DNA of 64,000 nucleotides from an uncultured Prevotellaceae bacterium (GTDB taxonomy: Bacteria > Bacteroidota > Bacteroidia > Bacteroidales > Muribaculaceae). The stretch is taken from the NCBI GenBank assembly GCA_900318645.1, contig ONLH01000014.1:17064-81063 (forward strand). Reading direction: 5' to 3'. Each line of letters starts with the position of its first letter. The stretch's first letter is position 1. Below the pieces are notes generated by a model. The model was given only the letters and a program-made list of their open reading frames with translations. It searched no databases and was not told where the DNA came from. Of this stretch, positions 22,699-30,734 are shown one piece after another. A program made the translations under genes and the position numbers.

Positions 22699-25600
22699 AT
22701 GGGACTTAGTGACATTTTGAAATCCATGTTTGGCAATAAGTCAACCCGTGACCTGAAGAAGATCACACCTATTGTCAACGAAATCAAAGCAATTTATCCC
22801 GAGATTGACGCTCTGGACATCGACAGCCTGAGACAGCGCACAGCCGACATCCGCCAGCAGCTCAACGACTCGGTACAGGACAAGCGAGACGAGATTGACC
22901 GCATCAAGGCCGAAATCGAGACCCTCGAGTATGAGGAGCGTGAACCGCTGTGGAAGAAAGTCGATGACATCCAGAAGGAGATTCTCGACGTTCTCGAGGA
23001 CAAGCTCAACGAGGTGTTGCCCACCGTGTTTGCCATCGTGAAATCCACGGCACGCCGCTTTGCCGAGAACGAGACCATTACCGTTACCGCCACCCAGCTC
23101 GACCGTGACCTGGCTGCCCAGGGCAAGGACTTCGTGAGCATCGAGGGTGACAAGGCAATTTACACCAACCACTGGATTGCCGGTGGCAACGACATGAAGT
23201 GGGATATGATCCACTACGACGTTCAGCTCATCGGTGGTATCGTGCTGCACCAGGGTAAGATTGCCGAGATGGCCACTGGTGAAGGTAAAACCCTGGTGGC
23301 TACCCTGCCCGTCTTCCTGAACGGTCTGACCGGCAACGGTGTCCATGTGGTAACCGTCAACGATTACCTGGCCAAGCGCGATAGCGAGTGGATGGGACCG
23401 CTCTACATGTTCCATGGCATGACCGTGGCTTGTATCGACAAGACCGAGCCCAACTCGCCCCAGCGCCGTGCCGCCTACAACTGCGACATCACCTTCGGTA
23501 CCAACAGTGAGTTCGGTTTCGACTACCTGCGCGACAATATGGCCATGCGCCCCGAGGACATGGTACAGCGCCCCCACAACTTCGCCATCGTCGATGAGGT
23601 CGATAGCGTGTTGATCGATGACGCCCGTACCCCGTTGATCATCTCTGGCCCGGTGCCCAAGGGCGAAGACCAGATGTTCAACCAATTCAAGCCCAACGTG
23701 GAGCGCGTCTATAACGCTCAGCGCCAGCTGGTGACCGGCTTGCTTGCCGATGCCAAGAAGATGATGGCCAGCGACGACCAGGAGACCGTCAAGGAAGGTA
23801 CCCTGCGACTCTACCGCGCCTTCAAGGGTCTGCCCAAGTATAAGCCGCTGATCAAGTACCTGAGTGAGGAGGGTGTCAAGGCCGCCATGCTCAAGACCGA
23901 GGCCTACTACATGCAGGACAACAACCGCGAGATGCCCACCGTGACCGATCCCCTGTTCTTCATCATCGACGAGAAGAACAATTCTGTCGAGATGACCGAT
24001 AAGGGTATCGACGTGCTCACCAGGGGTACCGACGATCCCGAGTTCTTTATCCTTCCTGACATCGCCGCCCAGCTGTCGGCAGTGACCAACGAGCCGCTGA
24101 CCGAGGAGGAGAAGATGAACAAGAAGGACGAGCTGCTCGCCAACTATTCGGTCAAGGCCGAGCGCGTACACACCGTGACCCAGCTCTTGAAGGCCTATAC
24201 CCTGTTCAACCGCGACGACGAGTATATCGTCGATGCCGAGGGCAAGGTAAAGATTGTCGATGAGCAGACGGGCCGTGTGATGGAGGGACGCCGCTACAGC
24301 GACGGTCTGCACCAGGCTATCGAGGCCAAGGAGGGTGTGAACGTCGAGGCTGCAACCCAGACGTTTGCCACCATCACGCTGCAGAACTACTTCCGCATGT
24401 ACCACAAGCTGGCAGGTATGACCGGTACCGCCGAGACCGAGGCCGGTGAGTTCTGGGACATCTACAAGCTGGATGTCGTGACCATCCCGACCAACAAGCC
24501 CGTGATCCGCAACGATATGGCCGACCGCGTTTACAAGACGCAGAAGGAGAAATTCAATGCCGTTATCGCCGAGATTGAAACCATGCGCAATTCGGGACGT
24601 CCCACGCTGGTGGGTACCACGAGCGTCGAAATCAGTGAGATGCTGAGCCGCATGTTGAACCTGCGCCACATCCCGCACAACGTCCTCAACGCCAAGTTGC
24701 ACCAGAAGGAGGCCGACATCGTCGCACAGGCCGGTCAGGCCATCGACGGCAAGGGTGTCGTGACCATCGCCACCAACATGGCAGGTCGTGGTACCGATAT
24801 CAAGCTCTCGCCCGAGGTGAAGGCCGCCGGCGGTCTTGCTATCATCGGTACCGAGCGCCACGAGTCTCGCCGTGTGGACCGCCAGCTGCGAGGCCGTGCC
24901 GGTCGTCAGGGTGACCCGGGTTCATCAGTATTCTTCGTTTCGTTCGAGGATAAGCTGATGCGTCTGTTCGCCCCCGAGAGGACAGTCAAGATGCTGGACC
25001 GCATGGGACTCAAGGATGGCGAGGCCATCGAGAGCAACATGGTGACCAAGAGTATCGAGAATGCCCAGAAGCGCGTCGAGGAAAACAACTTCGGTATCCG
25101 TAAACACCTGCTCGAGTATGACGACGTGATGAACGCCCAGCGCAAGGTGATTTACTCCCGCCGTCACCACGCCCTCATCGGCGAGCGTATCGGCCTGGAT
25201 ATCATCAACACCCTCTATGACAGTGTAGAGGACATGATCGAGAAATACGGTCCCGACGATTACGAGGACTTCCAGATGCAGGTGCTCAAGACCTTCGCCA
25301 TTGAGGCGCCCTACAACGAGGAAGAATATCGCCGCATGGACGATGGCAAGAAGCAGGAAGTGCTGTACAACAGCGTATTGAAGGCATTCAACCGCAAGAT
25401 GGAACGTCTGAGCGAGGTGGCCGATCCCATCATCCAACAGATTGTCGAGAAGCAGATTGCTGATGGCATGGAGCCCCAGGGACTCATCCGCGTGCCCATC
25501 ACCGACGGCAAGCGCGTCTTCGGTATCGTCATCGACATCAAGGAAGCTGCCGAGACCCATTGCAAGTCACTCACCAAGCAGTGGCAGAAGGCTGTCATGC

Positions 25601-26031
25601 TGCTCACCATCGACGACAACTGGAAGGAACACCTGCGTGAAATGGACCAGTTGCGCCAGAGCGTGCAGAACGCAAGCTATGAGCAGAAGGACCCGCTGGT
25701 AATCTACAAGACCGAGGCCTTCAACATGTTCAAGCAGATGGTTGGTATCATGAACGGCAAGTCCATCGCCATCCTCATGCGTGGCCAGATTCCCGAGGCA
25801 CCGCCCCAAGAGAACGTCCAGCAGAATGAGCCGCAGCCTCGCCAGCAGCGCTACAGCGAGGGTCGTGGCGGTCAGCCCGATCCCAGCCGTCCCAACGCGC
25901 CCGTCGGTCCGCGTCCCCAGGGTCCCGTAGGCCCCATCCGCAACGAGGGTCCCAAGATCGGCCGCAACGATCCCTGCCCCTGCGGTAGCGGCAAGAAATA
26001 CAAGAACTGCCACGGCCGCGGCCTGGCATAA
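22699..26031 (+). CDS. secA: Protein translocase subunit SecA
   Basis: [42 protein letters not shown]-terminal SEC-C motif [19 protein letters not shown]. Confidence 0.99.
25981..26031 (+). repeat. 51-bp direct repeat, left copy (last 17 codons of secA including the stop)
   Basis: tgcggtagcggcaagaaatacaagaactgccacggccgcggcctggcataa, identical to 29694-29744. Confidence 0.97.
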
Positions 26032-26051
26032 GCCAGTTCTTAAACCACACA

Positions 26052-26087
26052 ATTCACGCCAGCCCCCAAGTGAGGACTGGCGTGAAT
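26052..26087 (+). terminator. secA terminator hairpin
   Basis: attcacgccag...ctggcgtgaat followed by gtttatt. Confidence 0.7.
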
Positions 26088-26149
26088 GTTTATTATCAGA
26101 CTTCAGGAAAAAACGTTTATCCTAGATATGACTAATCCTTTAATCGCTT

Positions 26150-26425
26150 TTATTTCTTGCCATAATGGGAATGCATGGCGAGAATGTGAACAATAATACG
26201 GTCATCATCAACGGTGTAAATGAGGCGATGCTCTCGATTAATGCGACGAGACCACATCCCGGCAAGGGAAAAGCGCAGGGCTTCAGGTTTGCCGATGCCA
26301 GTGTATGGGTGTTGGGCTATATCAGCAAGCAGGAGCTTGATACGATTCACAACTTTTACATTACCGCTCTTGACAAAAGCATTGTAATGGTCAATCGCCG
26401 TTTGAGTAAGGACTATTTGGTACAT
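26150..26425 (-). CDS. yoeB: Txe/YoeB family toxin
   Basis: PYTGIGKPEALRFSLAGMWSRRINREHRLIY; overlaps the antitoxin stop. Confidence 0.93.
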   Translation of the reverse strand: MYQIVLTQTAIDHYNAFVKSGNVKVVNRIKLLLADIAQHPYTGIGKPEALRFSLAGMWSRRINREHRLIYTVDDDRIIVHILAMHSHYGKK

Positions 26426-26703
26426 GAGACACGGTCAAGCAATTGGTCTATTGATTCTCCTTCCTGTTGTGCTGTCACTCGACCATAAACGATATCATCC
26501 TCGGCAGCCACAAGCGATTGCATGAGCTGCGGGCGTTGCAACACAAACTCTGTCTCCATGATAGCATTATAATCCTCAAGGCTAATGACCACAACACTCT
26601 CGGCCCCAGGGCGGCTTACAATCAGCGGCTCATTATCAGCCGCCACTGCATCAAGAAAACTCTTCAAATTGTTCCTCAAATCAGTATAATTGGTCGTTTT
26701 CAT
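26413..26703 (-). CDS. yefM: Phd/YefM family antitoxin
   Basis: MKTTNYTDLRNNLKSFLDAV..DNEPLIVSR...VVVISLEDYNAIMET (ATG 26703). Confidence 0.92.
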   Translation of the reverse strand: MKTTNYTDLRNNLKSFLDAVAADNEPLIVSRPGAESVVVISLEDYNAIMETEFVLQRPQLMQSLVAAEDDIVYGRVTAQQEGESIDQLLDRVSCTK

Positions 26704-26725
26704 AATATCTCCTTTTAATTCACAG

Positions 26726-26754
26726 CACAAAGATAAGTACTTTTTTCAGTACTT
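26726..26754 (-). promoter_or_regulatory. TA promoter (-7 TATCTTTG) with adjacent inverted-repeat operator
   Basis: aagtact-tttttc-agtactt at 26735-26754 directly abuts minus-strand TATCTTTG; YefM-type antitoxins autorepress through such palindromes. Confidence 0.7.
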
Positions 26755-27112
26755 GCAAGCTTCTCACCAAAATATCAGCAAGTTTTATAACTTTTTGTTA
26801 TTAAGCCTTGTAAAACACACATAATTCCATTATTTTTGCCACCGATTAAGGCAACTATAGTCTTAATCGCGAACATCGTTGAACAAAAAGAAGCGTATTG
26901 CTTTTACTTGTAACAGAAAACGTAGGAAATTTTCTAAAAGACGCAAGTATGGCGATGCGGCTTCCACGCTACGGCGTGGGCTGCAATTTCCATATCTTCG
27001 TCTGCTGGTATCTTACGACCATCTGTTAGAGGTGTGGCGATTCAGTTCACGCTTCTATTTATATAATTAAATCGCCCCTGAGAACTGCACTGGCAATAGG
27101 AGACAAATTTGT

Positions 27113-29005
27113 ATGAAAACACTAAACCCAATCTTACGCACCATCCTGCTGACCCTCACTCTCGTTAGCACCGCCACCACCGCTTTCGCCTACTCCTTTA
27201 TGGTTAATGGCATCTATTACATTATAAATGGTGATGAAGCAACTGTAACATATAAAAGACAATACTCAGAATATGTTGGTAACAATATTTATCATACATA
27301 TTACGAAACTGATTGTTCTGGAGATGTTATTATTCCAGAAACTGTCACATTCAATGGTAAAACTTACACAGTTACAGCTATTGGTGATTACGCATTCTAT
27401 AATCGCTATTCATCTTCTTCGTTAACATATATAAATATTCCAAATACAGTCAGAACAATTGGAATTAATGCGTTTTATAATTGTGCTGGGCTTAAAGAAA
27501 TCACAATCCCAGTCTCCGTAACTTCTATAAATGATTATACGTTTTATGGTTGTAAAGGATTATTATATCTGACTGTTCCAAATACGATAACTTCAATTGG
27601 CAATTATGCTTTTTATAATTGTAGTAAATTAGCTACTTTATTCATCGGGAGCTCAGTAACAACTATAGCATCTTCAGCATTCTCTGGATGTCCATTATCA
27701 TCTATCACCTGCTATGCTATAACTCCACCATCTACTGATGGTTTCTACGATTACTCTGCTAATTTATATGTTCCAAAGGAATCTGTTGAACTGTATCGGA
27801 CAACATCTGGATGGAACTATTTTACAAATGTCTATGGATTTGGGAATGATTCTTTCTCTATTCCTGATGAAACGTCATTCCATGGTGATACTATTGTGAT
27901 TCCCGTATCCATGCAGAATGAGAGTACGATTACCGCATTCCAGACGGATGTTTATCTGCCTGATGGATTTGAATTGGTTAATGTAAATGGTGAGTATCAG
28001 GTAAGTCTCTCTGACCGCAAGGGGCGTGACCATGTCATCATGGTGAATGATGCGCCCGATGGAGCTTTGCGCGTGTTGAGTTATTCACCGACCTTGAAGG
28101 CCTTTAAAAACAATGAGGGTGAGTTGTTCTATATCACCATCAAGGTACCCGAGGGTGTCAGTGGCACGTTCCCCATTTGGTTAAGAAACACGATATTGAC
28201 CTCTACTGATGAGGAAGAACTTTATGCCATTGACGCATTGAGTAACGTGAGTGTCACTAACATCATCAAGGGTGACGCAAATATGAGCGGTGGTATCACT
28301 ATCGCCGATGTGGTAGTAACAGCTAAATATATTCTTTTCCAAAATCCTGAGCCATTTAACCTTGAGGCTGCAGATATGAATGGTGACGGCAAGATTACGA
28401 TCACTGATGTTGTAAAGATTGCTAATCTTGTGCTTGACCAAGATTATGATGAGCCCACTAACATGCGCATGATGACGTCAAACGTGGTTGGCGACCGCAT
28501 GAGTGGAGAGGTTATCGGCAACACAGTCTGCATCAATCTGGACAATGATATGGAATATACTGCATTGCAGCTTGACTTGACCTTGCCCGAAGGCATGACG
28601 GCAAGCGATTTTGCACTGACTGAGCGCGCTAGCAGCCTGGGCCTTAGCATGAAAGACAAGGGCAACGGTAAAATCCGCGTTCTTGCTTACACCCCTAATC
28701 TGAAAACCATCAAGGGCAACGAGGGCACGCTCTTGACCTTCAATGTGGATGGCACAAGGGGCGATATCAAGGTTGATCGCATTGAAGTGGTAAACCTGAA
28801 TGGAGAAAGCACCCATCTGCAAGGCTTTACCATTGCAGCTATCACCCCGACTGCATTGAAAGAGATGGCCACAGGAAAGGCTATCTCCAGCGTCAATTAC
28901 TTCAACCTTGCAGGTCAGCAAATGACCGAGCCCGCAAGTGGTGTGACAATTGTTGTCACCACCTACAGCGACGGGTCACGCTCCACCAGCAAAGTCGTCC
29001 GATAA
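27113..29005 (+). CDS. Secreted BspA-type LRR_5 protein with cohesin-like, dockerin, second cohesin-like and T9SS-like C-terminal domains
   Basis: Signal peptide; IPxSVTSIGxYAFYNC repeats; TIVIPVSMQN..TITAFQTDVYLPDG; GDANMSGGITIADV...ADMNGDGKITITDVV; CTD GKAISSVNYFNLAGQ...IVVTTYSDG. Confidence 0.85.
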   Translation: MKTLNPILRTILLTLTLVSTATTAFAYSFMVNGIYYIINGDEATVTYKRQYSEYVGNNIYHTYYETDCSGDVIIPETVTFNGKTYTVTAIGDYAFYNRYSSSSLTYINIPNTVRTIGINAFYNCAGLKEITIPVSVTSINDYTFYGCKGLLYLTVPNTITSIGNYAFYNCSKLATLFIGSSVTTIASSAFSGCPLSSITCYAITPPSTDGFYDYSANLYVPKESVELYRTTSGWNYFTNVYGFGNDSFSIPDETSFHGDTIVIPVSMQNESTITAFQTDVYLPDGFELVNVNGEYQVSLSDRKGRDHVIMVNDAPDGALRVLSYSPTLKAFKNNEGELFYITIKVPEGVSGTFPIWLRNTILTSTDEEELYAIDALSNVSVTNIIKGDANMSGGITIADVVVTAKYILFQNPEPFNLEAADMNGDGKITITDVVKIANLVLDQDYDEPTNMRMMTSNVVGDRMSGEVIGNTVCINLDNDMEYTALQLDLTLPEGMTASDFALTERASSLGLSMKDKGNGKIRVLAYTPNLKTIKGNEGTLLTFNVDGTRGDIKVDRIEVVNLNGESTHLQGFTIAAITPTALKEMATGKAISSVNYFNLAGQQMTEPASGVTIVVTTYSDGSRSTSKVVR

Positions 29006-29020
29006 TATAATCGTCTCCCC

Positions 29021-29680
29021 ATGATGAAAAAACTTATATTAGTCGCGGTCATGGCGGTGGCACTTAGTGCCACTGCTGCCAACCGCTTTTACCTCCCGAA
29101 CTTCACCATCGCAGTTGGTGAGACCATGCAGTTGGCGATGATTTTGGAAAATGACGAACTGTTCACAGCTTTCCAAACAGATTTGATACTTCCTCAAGGA
29201 TTATCGGTAGTAGAAGATGATGGTGATTACCTCTTTGATTTGACCAGCCGCAATGCCAGCGACCAAGTTATTATCAGCAAGCTGCGACCTGATGGGGCCC
29301 TAAGGATGGAATCCTTCTGCATGAGCGTGAGACCTTATTCAGGCACGAGCGGGACGCTTGTCGTCATCAACCTAACTGCAGACCAAAGCTTTACTGGTCC
29401 AGCAACTATAAAATTGAAGAACTCATTTTTCTGTACTATAGAGGGTGTTGAATTCATCCTTCCTCAAGAGAGTTGTGAGGTACAATTACTGCCACAGCAG
29501 ATTAAAGGTGATGCAAACGGTGACGGAAAAATGAGCATCAGCGACGTGACCTGGGTCATCAACTATCTGTTGGTGGGATGCAGCTCATCATTCCACATCG
29601 AGAATGCTGATATCAACGATGATGGCAACATCAGTATCGCCGACGTGACAGCATTAATCAATATGCTCTTGCAGGAATAG
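29021..29680 (+). CDS. Secreted cohesin-like + dockerin protein
   Basis: Signal peptide; ILENDELFTAFQTDLILPQG; GDANGDGKMSISDVTWVINYLL...ADINDDGNISIADVTALINMLL. Confidence 0.82.
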   Translation: MMKKLILVAVMAVALSATAANRFYLPNFTIAVGETMQLAMILENDELFTAFQTDLILPQGLSVVEDDGDYLFDLTSRNASDQVIISKLRPDGALRMESFCMSVRPYSGTSGTLVVINLTADQSFTGPATIKLKNSFFCTIEGVEFILPQESCEVQLLPQQIKGDANGDGKMSISDVTWVINYLLVGCSSSFHIENADINDDGNISIADVTALINMLLQE

Positions 29681-29693
29681 ACACATTCGGCAA

Positions 29694-29744
29694 TGCGGTA
29701 GCGGCAAGAAATACAAGAACTGCCACGGCCGCGGCCTGGCATAA
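29694..29744 (+). repeat. 51-bp direct repeat, right copy (orphan secA 3' end)
   Basis: Exact match to 25981-26031; 13 bp after the dockerin gene stop. Confidence 0.97.
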
Positions 29745-29768
29745 TTGCCAACGGCGATAACATCCAAC

Positions 29769-29813
29769 AAATAGAGTTCCCGCCAGCCCAAGTGGCCAGC
29801 GGGAACTCTATTT
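29769..29813. terminator. Bidirectional terminator-like hairpin
   Basis: aaatagagttcccgc...gcgggaactctattt followed by ttctttt, between convergent units. Confidence 0.75.
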
Positions 29814-29859
29814 TTCTTTTCATCTAGAACTTCTAGACTATCTAGAGTGTCTAGATGAT

Positions 29860-30609
29860 CTAGACAGGCAGCTTGTCGTCGAGGATGAGGTGGAGCCATT
29901 GGGCGGTGGTCAGGGGGATGGGGCCGGCTGGCTCGGTGGACATCAGGCGCTCGTTGAGGTCGTAGAGCAGGGGGCGGGCATCGGCCTCGCCGACGCGGGC
30001 AATAATGGCATGGGCCTCGGGCATGGCCCGCTCCATGACGGCCTGAGATGAGGGACGCAACAGGAAACTGCGCCAATAGAGCCAGTAGGCGTAATCATAG
30101 ATGCGCTGGGCATCGGCAGGATTGGTCAACTCCACCTCGCTGGCAATACAGAACTGCTGCGGCACGGGAGCCTGCTCATATTCCTCATCCAGCAACATGT
30201 GGAAGGCTGTAGCAAGAGCCTTGAGGCCATCATCTTGTGGATCAAGGACTTCGCCGCCAAGCTCACCTGCTATCGTCCACCAGATGACATAACGCACATC
30301 ATCGAGGTTCAACTCGTAGTCCACATAGTCCTCGCTACGTCCGTAGTGTGGCACAGGAGAGCCATGACGCTCACTGTGAACGCGGGTGAACGAGCGCCAG
30401 ATGCCACCGTCGGCCACCACGTCCTGATAATAGCCCGTCACGGCAAGCACCACGTCGCGGCGCACCGCATCATCCAAGCCTCGCAGCCACGGCGACTCGT
30501 CCCACAGCTTGGCTAGCCGCAGGGCAATCCACAAGTAAAACTGGTCAGTCACCGCCACAGTAGGGTTATTGGGCTGACGCTCCATAAAGTCCTTAACAGT
30601 AATTTCCAT
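29860..30609 (-). CDS. DUF3843-like hypothetical protein
   Basis: MEITVKDF...DQFYLWIA..L; DYVDYELNLDDVRYVIW resembles the DUF3843 N-terminal region as I recall it. Confidence 0.55.
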   Translation of the reverse strand: MEITVKDFMERQPNNPTVAVTDQFYLWIALRLAKLWDESPWLRGLDDAVRRDVVLAVTGYYQDVVADGGIWRSFTRVHSERHGSPVPHYGRSEDYVDYELNLDDVRYVIWWTIAGELGGEVLDPQDDGLKALATAFHMLLDEEYEQAPVPQQFCIASEVELTNPADAQRIYDYAYWLYWRSFLLRPSSQAVMERAMPEAHAIIARVGEADARPLLYDLNERLMSTEPAGPIPLTTAQWLHLILDDKLPV

Positions 30610-30658: not shown

Positions 30659-30734
30659 TGGAGCCGCGAGCGGGACTCGAACCCGCGACCTTTTCGTTAC
30701 GAATGAAATGCTCTACCGACTGAGCTATTGCGGC
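30659..30734 (-). tRNA. tRNA-Thr(CGT)
   Basis: GCCGCAATAGCTCAGTCGGTAGAGC...TTCGTAA anticodon loop...GGGTTCGAGTCCC...GCGGCTCCA; CCA encoded, 76 nt. Confidence 0.95.

Follow-up and report, generated by a model that had tools for sequence, protein, structure and literature searches.

A recombinase-less islet at the 3' end of secA in an uncultured Prevotellaceae bacterium, flanked by a 51-bp duplication of the gene's end and probably spread by homologous recombination

How does a block of genes that encodes no recombinase come to stand between two exact copies of the end of an essential gene? The question is raised by a stretch of 64,000 nucleotides from the genome of an uncultured Prevotellaceae bacterium (GenBank assembly GCA_900318645.1, contig ONLH01000014.1, positions 17,064 to 81,063 of the forward strand), to which all coordinates below refer and which we call the window. 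Here the last 51 bp of secA recur downstream as an exact direct repeat, with 0 mismatches where 0 matches are expected in shuffled sequences, and the two copies enclose 3,662 bp (Table 1). The resulting islet of ~3.7 kb holds four genes, with no recombinase or transposase among them: a yefM-yoeB toxin-antitoxin (TA) pair and two genes of cohesin/dockerin type. It is single-copy in the genome, and the G+C content drops from 56-65% in the flanks to 30-50% within it. The answer to which we lean is that the islet was placed by a Campbell-type exchange through the conserved end of secA, that homologous recombination has spread and homogenised it and can delete it, and that it is probably kept by its TA pair.

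Table 1. Positions of the islet, its genes and its flanking features in the window
Feature	Position	Strand	Description
secA	22699..26031	+	complete; Pfam SecA_DEAD, P-loop_SecA, SecA_SW, SecA_PP_bind, SEC-C
Left 51-bp repeat copy	25981..26031	+	coding; SEC-C motif, 16 residues and stop codon of secA
termA hairpin	26052..26087		inverted repeat I7 and terminator scan; foreign-type secA terminator
yoeB toxin gene	26150..26425	-	PF06769 84 bits, TIGR02116 87 bits
yefM antitoxin gene	26413..26703	-	PF02604 65 bits, TIGR01552
Structured RNA leader, ~166 nt	26890..27055	+	long hairpin; basal stem, then U-run
Gene for 630-residue surface protein	27113..29005	+	signal peptide, BspA-type leucine-rich repeats (PF13306), dockerin (PF00404), conserved C-terminal tail
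Gene for 219-residue protein	29021..29680	+	signal peptide, cohesin-like beta-sandwich, dockerin (PF00404)
13-bp spacer, cargo stop codon to right copy	29681..29693		novel junction common to all carriers
Right 51-bp repeat copy	29694..29744	+	non-coding relic, native secA end
termB hairpin	29769..29813		inverted repeat I1; native secA terminator of this species
TCTAGA-rich repeat array, native	29820..29867		precedes DUF3843 stop codon; present in empty sites
DUF3843 gene, right-hand anchor of the site	29860..30609	-	PF12954; genus-normal length

The stretch of secA that forms the left copy is nearly invariant across the genus. Similarity between the two copies extends past the 51 bp, and the hairpins behind them, here named termA and termB, are diverged versions of one secA terminator. 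termA now serves as the terminator of both secA and yoeB, one on each strand, and termB as that of the cohesin/dockerin operon. A search for further copies of the 51-bp core elsewhere in the genome and in viral contigs found none. Two copies in the same layout were recovered from independent metagenome assemblies (L047 and L123, 100% identical; L121, 99.7%; L046, 95-99%), and further contigs cover each repeat junction separately. Because these independent assemblies, from other samples, carry both copies, the duplication is not a mis-join. An earlier note on this DNA, made from the sequence alone, had described a perfect 51-bp duplication of the secA end enclosing yefM-yoeB and two cohesin/dockerin genes, with no recombinase present. 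The exact repeat is seen alike in the independent assemblies, and Pfam, family models and a fold match bear out the gene content. Neither in the islet nor on the whole 108-kb contig (C27) could a recombinase be found, the 12 tyrosine recombinases of the genome being on other contigs.

The same site is empty in other strains of the species, a rumen member of the Bacteroidales. In two of them with an identical SecA protein (L122 and L125), secA with a single 51-mer is followed by termB, the TCTAGA array and DUF3843, without termA, and the spacer from the repeat copy to DUF3843 measures 115 bp, exactly as in the window (29745-29859). The conspecific empty site equals the window minus exactly positions 26032-29744, the insert consisting of one 51-mer plus 3,662 bp, and this is the product expected of one reciprocal exchange within the 51-mer. 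The genomes of the closest species (G092 and G002) are empty in the same manner, with one copy, termB and DUF3843, and empty secA sites are found in most species of the genus. Empty sites in strains with identical SecA support the view of the earlier note that the layout is that of integration into the 3' end of a gene with the gene restored.

The two terminators point to where the islet came from. termB is native to this clade and directly follows secA in L122, L125, G092 and G002, whereas the nearest native counterparts of termA are the secA terminators of G083 and L057, with more distant ones in G011, G022 and G007. Since termA is foreign to the species, the islet arrived with a secA end and a terminator from another lineage. 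Compared with an empty conspecific strain, secA shows an even density of single-nucleotide polymorphisms (0.5-0.7%), with no foreign tract upstream of ~25933; this places the left exchange in the terminal ~100 bp of secA, a stretch that hardly varies across the genus.

The cargo has counterparts elsewhere in the genus. Beside a GT2 glycosyltransferase gene and radC, other species carry, at 72-76% identity, a block with the order yoeB-yefM, a ~170-nt leader, a leucine-rich-repeat (LRR)/dockerin gene and a cohesin/dockerin gene. The full block is present at this locus in G056, stands without the TA pair in G106 and G113, and has a variant form in G022; in G023 the two parts are separate, the TA pair lying at the GT2 locus and the gene pair next to lepA. 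The GT2 locus of the present genome is without the block. Flanking repeats were searched for around the GT2/radC blocks and none was found, and the block there has its own terminator. Judged by sequence and gene order, then, the islet is a relocated copy of a genus-typical chromosomal cluster. Since the block in the islet is cut 13 bp past its last stop codon, the 3' end of the cargo operon is now supplied by the displaced secA end and termB.

These observations can be brought together in the exchange to which we lean. The native order in the species would have been secA, termB and DUF3843, and the block would have arrived on DNA from a termA-type lineage in which it already stood behind secA. 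A single reciprocal exchange in the last 51 bp of secA (Campbell-type, or 'ends-in') would then have put termA, the block and a second secA-end copy at the site, leaving secA to end on a hybrid copy and an imported terminator, and the displaced native end and terminator to close the cargo operon. We infer that no dedicated recombinase took part, RecA-type homologous recombination acting at the SEC-C coding end. The same recombination could move the islet across strains and species, homogenise the copies and delete the islet precisely; the junction of a precise deletion would read GATCCCTGCCCC, 51-mer, TTGCCAACGG, and that of a circle GGAATAGACACATTCGGCAA, 51-mer, GCCAGTTCTTAAACC. Among the assemblies, none of the contigs showed a circular junction. 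By analogy with type II TA modules on islands, YefM-YoeB would penalise loss of the islet, and retention by the TA module, as the earlier note had proposed, is plausible given a pair that appears intact. In the donor lineage, the primary duplication would have been ~110 bp long (gene end plus termA, as in L044), which would fit an 'insertion with long target duplication'.

Comparison of the carrier alleles shows a single junction and variation to its right. In all of them the cargo stop codon is followed by 12-13 bp and the 51-mer. Behind the 51-mer stands termB in this genome and in L046 (cargo identity 100% and 93-96%, respectively, the latter with an LRR N-terminus at 65%), termA in L044 and L045 (cargo 100%, identical over 1,540 bp; DUF3843 97%), a variant of termA in L060-L067 and L078 (cargo 89%), and another variant of termA in L056 and L068-L070 (cargo 85.5-86%). 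Between this genome (G000) and L044, the 1,540 bp of identical cargo run to the last base of the right copy, where termB begins in one and termA in the other. The cargoes of L056 and L068 are 99.3% identical, and their right copies and the terminators behind them differ. As the flanks of L046 and of the L060-type carriers are 97-100% identical, the cargo is a fast-diverging, recombining surface-protein locus.

One carrier, L058, is a mosaic across lineages. Its secA is 76-94% identical to that of the window, but identity rises to 99% from ~25933 through termA and is about 95% in the TA genes. On the other side, the first 300 bp of its DUF3843 gene are 96% identical and the remainder 83-89%, the right break lying inside DUF3843 and not at the repeat. 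L058 is without the dockerin genes, the right copy and termB, and shows a deletion of ~26839-29815 with ATTTTT microhomology. Breaks in the invariant secA end and inside DUF3843 are, as a sequence pattern, the signature of an import by homologous recombination. The SEC-C end is the only long run of identity between lineages more than 10% apart, so that breaks cluster there without a dedicated enzyme.

The right copy is non-coding, and one allele has a change of TGC to CGC that, in a coding sequence, would abolish a zinc-binding Cys. Across alleles it is 49-51/51 identical, against 81% in the adjacent 300 bp of cargo and 8/13 in the spacer. A divergence of ~19% predicts roughly ten changes in 51 bp, and by a Poisson estimate the probability of no more than two is ~0.004. 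Where this genome has AAA in both copies, L046 has AAG in both. Gene conversion, with the constrained left copy as the source, accounts for this conservation, and so would a maintained recombinase site.

With such a site, the islet would be a decayed site-specific integrative element similar to a cis-mobilizable element (CIME), for which an integrase that the element once encoded, or one encoded elsewhere, treats the 51-mer as attL/attR and is able to cut the islet out and insert it again, the repeat being kept as a working site. The layout fits integration into a gene 3' end with restoration, the junction base is one and the same in every allele, conservation is far higher in the right copy than around it, a single cargo sequence is found with two different right-hand flanks that part exactly where the repeat ends, and the genome does encode 12 tyrosine recombinases. 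We nevertheless consider this explanation unlikely. More than 25 carrier contigs have no integrase in or near the islet, and no integrase-bearing element at secA was found in 133 genomes of the genus, a sample of 400 genomes of the order, the islet-carrying metagenome contigs or viral contigs. Among the 133 genus genomes, only the present one has a second secA-end copy on one contig; extra matches to the secA end occur on other contigs in G093, G074 and G139, and the one that was inspected, in G093, belongs to another SEC-C protein. In the order sample all double matches were on separate contigs, and these were not inspected individually. The exact 51-mer was found on four contigs of the Joint Genome Institute (JGI) metagenomes, none of them with an integrase, and the plasmid and phage collections gave a match to the RNA leader only. 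Nor were arm-type repeats detected: within 300 bp at either end of the islet there are no shared or tandem motifs of at least 10 nt, only few 8-9-mers scattered in coding sequence, and with 13 bp from the cargo stop codon to the core one arm would fall inside the coding region. That the cargo is a genus-native chromosomal block, that the right break of L058 lies in DUF3843, and that the core has no copy elsewhere in the genome or in viral contigs also speak against an integrative element.

The earlier note had gone further and taken the islet for a trans-mobilised satellite or a reduced integrative island, acting as a vehicle for surface-scaffold genes. This is not what we find. The search for integrases beside secA 3' duplications in related genomes, which that note had advised, yielded none in the genus and order genomes, and arm-type repeats are absent; the right copy begins just 13 bp after the cargo stop codon, the same genes form elsewhere an ordinary GT2/radC cluster, and the transfers resemble homologous recombination. 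The role as a vehicle is likewise not supported. The note did not know secA as an attachment site in Bacteroidales, and in the library searched we found no paper that describes it as one.

Equally improbable, in our judgement, is a one-off local rearrangement that is now immobile and vertically inherited, for example by homology-facilitated illegitimate recombination or by tandem duplication followed by deletion. On this view the empty sites would be either the ancestral state or the result of simple deletion, and the flanks would differ because neighbouring DNA was later replaced by other alleles. A single junction in all carriers implies a single origin, the duplication is unique among the genus and order genomes, cargo alleles have diverged by up to 15-20% and the structure is hence old, and the spacer is a general indel hot spot. 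However, the TA genes and the copy-plus-termA segment of L058 are 95-99% identical while its flanks are at 76-90%, so that lineage boundaries have been crossed; identical cargo stands in different flanks, and termA is foreign to the host clade. This evidence shows movement, though movement need not use the repeat. A template-switch signature through microhomology at the right junction was also considered and rejected, as the CGGCAA motif is out of the required register.

We are more sceptical still of a broader proposal, namely that cassettes without a recombinase generally use the SEC-C end of secA for docking and, by carrying a copy of those codons, could enter, leave and pass between diverged lineages, whether through RecA acting on such 'portable homology' or through an unlinked recombinase that recognises it. 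As for an assembly artefact, in which the second copy would come from a mis-join in a genome that is a 75-contig draft, it can be set aside, because both copies are found in the same order in at least four independent assemblies from different samples, which also contradict the misassembly that the earlier note had seen as a way in which it might be wrong.

The Campbell-type exchange through the secA end has to be weighed against several points of its own. Its dependence on RecA is only inferred. Homologous recombination works poorly on a patch of 51 bp, and yet at least one exchange, that between G000 and L044, was confined to ~64 bp. A donor lineage with the primary duplication is absent from the sampled species genomes, and the exchange does not account for the initial placement of the GT2-locus block behind secA, flanked by a duplication. 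Finally, the strong conservation of the non-coding right copy fits a maintained recombinase site equally well.

The genes of the islet were characterized by family models and predicted structure. yefM and yoeB overlap by 13 bp with the antitoxin first, both family models score above their curated cut-offs, and the YoeB motifs GKPE, EHRL and C-terminal HY align with those of E. coli YoeB (2a6q); by these sequence features they form an intact type II TA pair. The dockerin model PF00404 scores above its cut-off in both the 630- and the 219-residue proteins, and the C-terminal tail of the former matches many loci in the genome. An AlphaFold model of the 219-residue protein (pLDDT 74) has cohesins as its top Foldseek matches, with E values down to 3.6e-6; residues ~22-157 of this model, which is of moderate confidence, match cohesin structures such as 2jh2 (TM 0.72 normalised to the target, E 2.6e-5). 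Since the N-terminal beta-sandwich of the model matches cohesins best, the label 'cohesin/dockerin' is justified for the gene pair by sequence and predicted fold.

The 630-residue protein varies strongly between strains. Its N-terminal LRR and the region just upstream (window 27113-27850) differ by 22-35% between conspecific strains (against L046, L124 and L049) whose flanks are 97-100% identical, as would be expected if alleles were replaced in cassette fashion or if selection favoured diversity in the exposed part of the scaffold protein. In other strains (L078/L080/L082, at ~27782 of the window, and also L076, L079 and L081) a mobilizable element of at least 25 kb lies inside the BspA-LRR coding part of the homologue of this gene. 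Its genes include a Mob_Pre relaxase, HTH_17, a reverse transcriptase, a WYL regulator, a WD40-like protein of 963 residues, DUF3307 and a PHP/SMC-type ATPase. In other genomes the identical end of the element (...GGAACACAATAAGTTACAAATACT) borders on a different LRR_5 gene, a hint that LRR_5 repeats are its target; its integrase end lies beyond the contig starts. We considered this Mob_Pre element as the missing parent of the islet and rejected it, since it is inserted within LRR coding sequence and has the same end in a different LRR gene elsewhere.

Between the TA pair and the surface-protein genes lies a structured RNA leader, ~55 nt upstream of the start codon of the 630-residue protein gene, with a fold z-score of -4.5. 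In an alignment of 30 copies, 98% of the cells pair and 20/44 pairs covary, against 41-48% pairing in slid controls, and its strand is fixed by invariant G-U pairs. The leader is present in 58/133 genus genomes, with one to at least six copies in each, and at 71-75% identity in records of Bacteroides, Phocaeicola, Parabacteroides and Prevotella and in one phage contig. The copies examined (L089-L117 and L059) stand ~55 nt before the start codons of diverse genes for signal-peptide or surface proteins. No match to it was found in Rfam 15. These features make it a candidate for a family of cis-regulatory, attenuator-like RNA that is new relative to Rfam 15 and may coincide with a published Bacteroides small RNA family such as FopS. 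The leader may hold wider interest than the islet itself.

The spacer between secA and DUF3843 is a variable spot with other recombinase-free cargo as well. From the secA end to DUF3843 it measures 80-260 bp in about 30 species, and in others it holds an M1 peptidase with an AAA_14 ATPase, a TonB_C gene with a radical-SAM gene, or an acyltransferase. None of the annotated inserts has a recombinase and none of those genomes a second secA-end copy. The comparison of the interval across strains that the earlier note had called for has thus turned up both empty sites (L122, L125, G092 and G002) and alternative cargo, and relatives do not all share the same content.

In at least seven species the spacer is filled by a stretch of 5.3-5.9 kb (G024 and, by spacing, G056, G090, G107, G117, G131 and G094). 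In G024, the only one annotated (contig C28; L029 1934-7340), this cassette has no repeats and encodes an extracytoplasmic function (ECF) sigma factor, a putative anti-sigma factor, a CarboxypepD_reg protein and an outer-membrane beta-barrel; a longer insert in G120 starts with a similar sigma gene. The cassette may be either an old resident that was lost many times or a recurrent gain.

Smaller features add to the variation around the site. TCTAGA arrays of 2 to more than 10 units of 8-10 bp run from the secA terminator to the DUF3843 stop codon, with a length that varies between species; they are seen in the empty sites of G092, G011, G022, G023 and L122, and similar arrays exist elsewhere in the genome. 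In some strains (L050/L052, at ~26097-26104 of the window, and at a similar place in L048/L124) an insert of 205 bp resembling a miniature inverted-repeat transposable element (MITE) lies between termA and yoeB, with terminal inverted repeats of ~18 bp (CATTGCTGTCCACTAAAA...) and an 8-bp target duplication, CAGACTTC. Palindromes similar to repetitive extragenic palindromic (REP) sequences, of the GAGACGCAAGATTTTGCGTCTC and GGCGGCCACGCCAAGGCGAGGCC types, occupy the same interval in other strains and have dozens of genomic copies. The sequence to the right of termA ('flank A') was rejected as a marker of a donor chromosome, as it consists of such multi-copy REP/MITE-like repeats. An insertion-truncated DUF3843 was rejected too, because ~250 residues is the usual length in the genus, orthologues in 76 genomes having 248-249 matched residues. 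Further to the right, a tRNA-Thr(CGU) gene on the minus strand (window 30659-30734), between DUF3843 and DUF4270, is uninvolved in the islet; at its position L046 has an indel or replacement (70% identity, 23 gaps).

The islet is a natural example of a block without any mobility gene that is inserted, lost and passed between diverged lineages while carrying a copy of the most conserved part of an essential gene. This bears on how genes for defence, addiction and surface variation spread among the Bacteroidales of gut and rumen, and on the way in which genome annotation scores 'integrase-less islands'. Strains with and without the islet can be matched here, and the repeat of 51 bp and the TA pair make the locus a simple system for telling RecA-driven from recombinase-driven mobility and for measuring how far a TA module protects a repeat-flanked islet.

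As a type, the islet is well documented and not a new kind. One parallel is offered by CIMEs, such as those at the 3' end of fda in Streptococcus thermophilus, and by the accretion of islands from integrative and conjugative elements (ICEs) or integrative and mobilizable elements (IMEs). CIMEs derive from ICEs or IMEs whose integrase still recognises their repeats, and such relatives share the site in other strains. Like them, the islet has neither integrase nor relaxase and is bounded by direct repeats that include the restored 3' end of a housekeeping gene; unlike them, it has a native genus block as cargo, and no ICE or IME relative, integrase or arm site was found. Capsule and O-antigen loci are islets between conserved core genes that are exchanged via flanking homology, normally without a duplicated anchor. 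The islet resembles such hot spots in its strain-variable cargo between secA and DUF3843, its alleles that diverge faster than the flanks and its mosaic identity, and differs from them in that the last 51 bp of the left anchor travel with it and serve as right-hand homology. TA modules stabilise islands, as mosAT does on SXT and sgiAT on SGI1; here, too, an island that recombination between its flanking repeats can remove has an intact TA pair at its edge, and by analogy this pair may stabilise the islet. A difference is seen in L058, which has kept the TA pair but not the cargo and the right copy.

A further likeness is to insertions of restriction-modification complexes with long target duplications of 46-423 bp, often over the 3' end of a gene and without mobility genes (Nobusato et al. 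2000; Furuta, Abe and Kobayashi 2010, PMC2853133). In common with the class described in 2010 (PMC2853133), the islet is an insert of <20 kb with no mobility gene, an addiction-type module and a lower G+C content, and it is flanked by a direct repeat of >30 bp (51 bp exact here, ~110 bp in termA-flanked alleles) that is single-copy in related genomes and lies at the 3' end of a gene. The differences are that a type II TA pair takes the place of the restriction-modification genes, that surface-protein genes are added, and that a foreign-type terminator stands by the left copy, which shows that recombination brought the islet in and that it was not duplicated de novo within this species.

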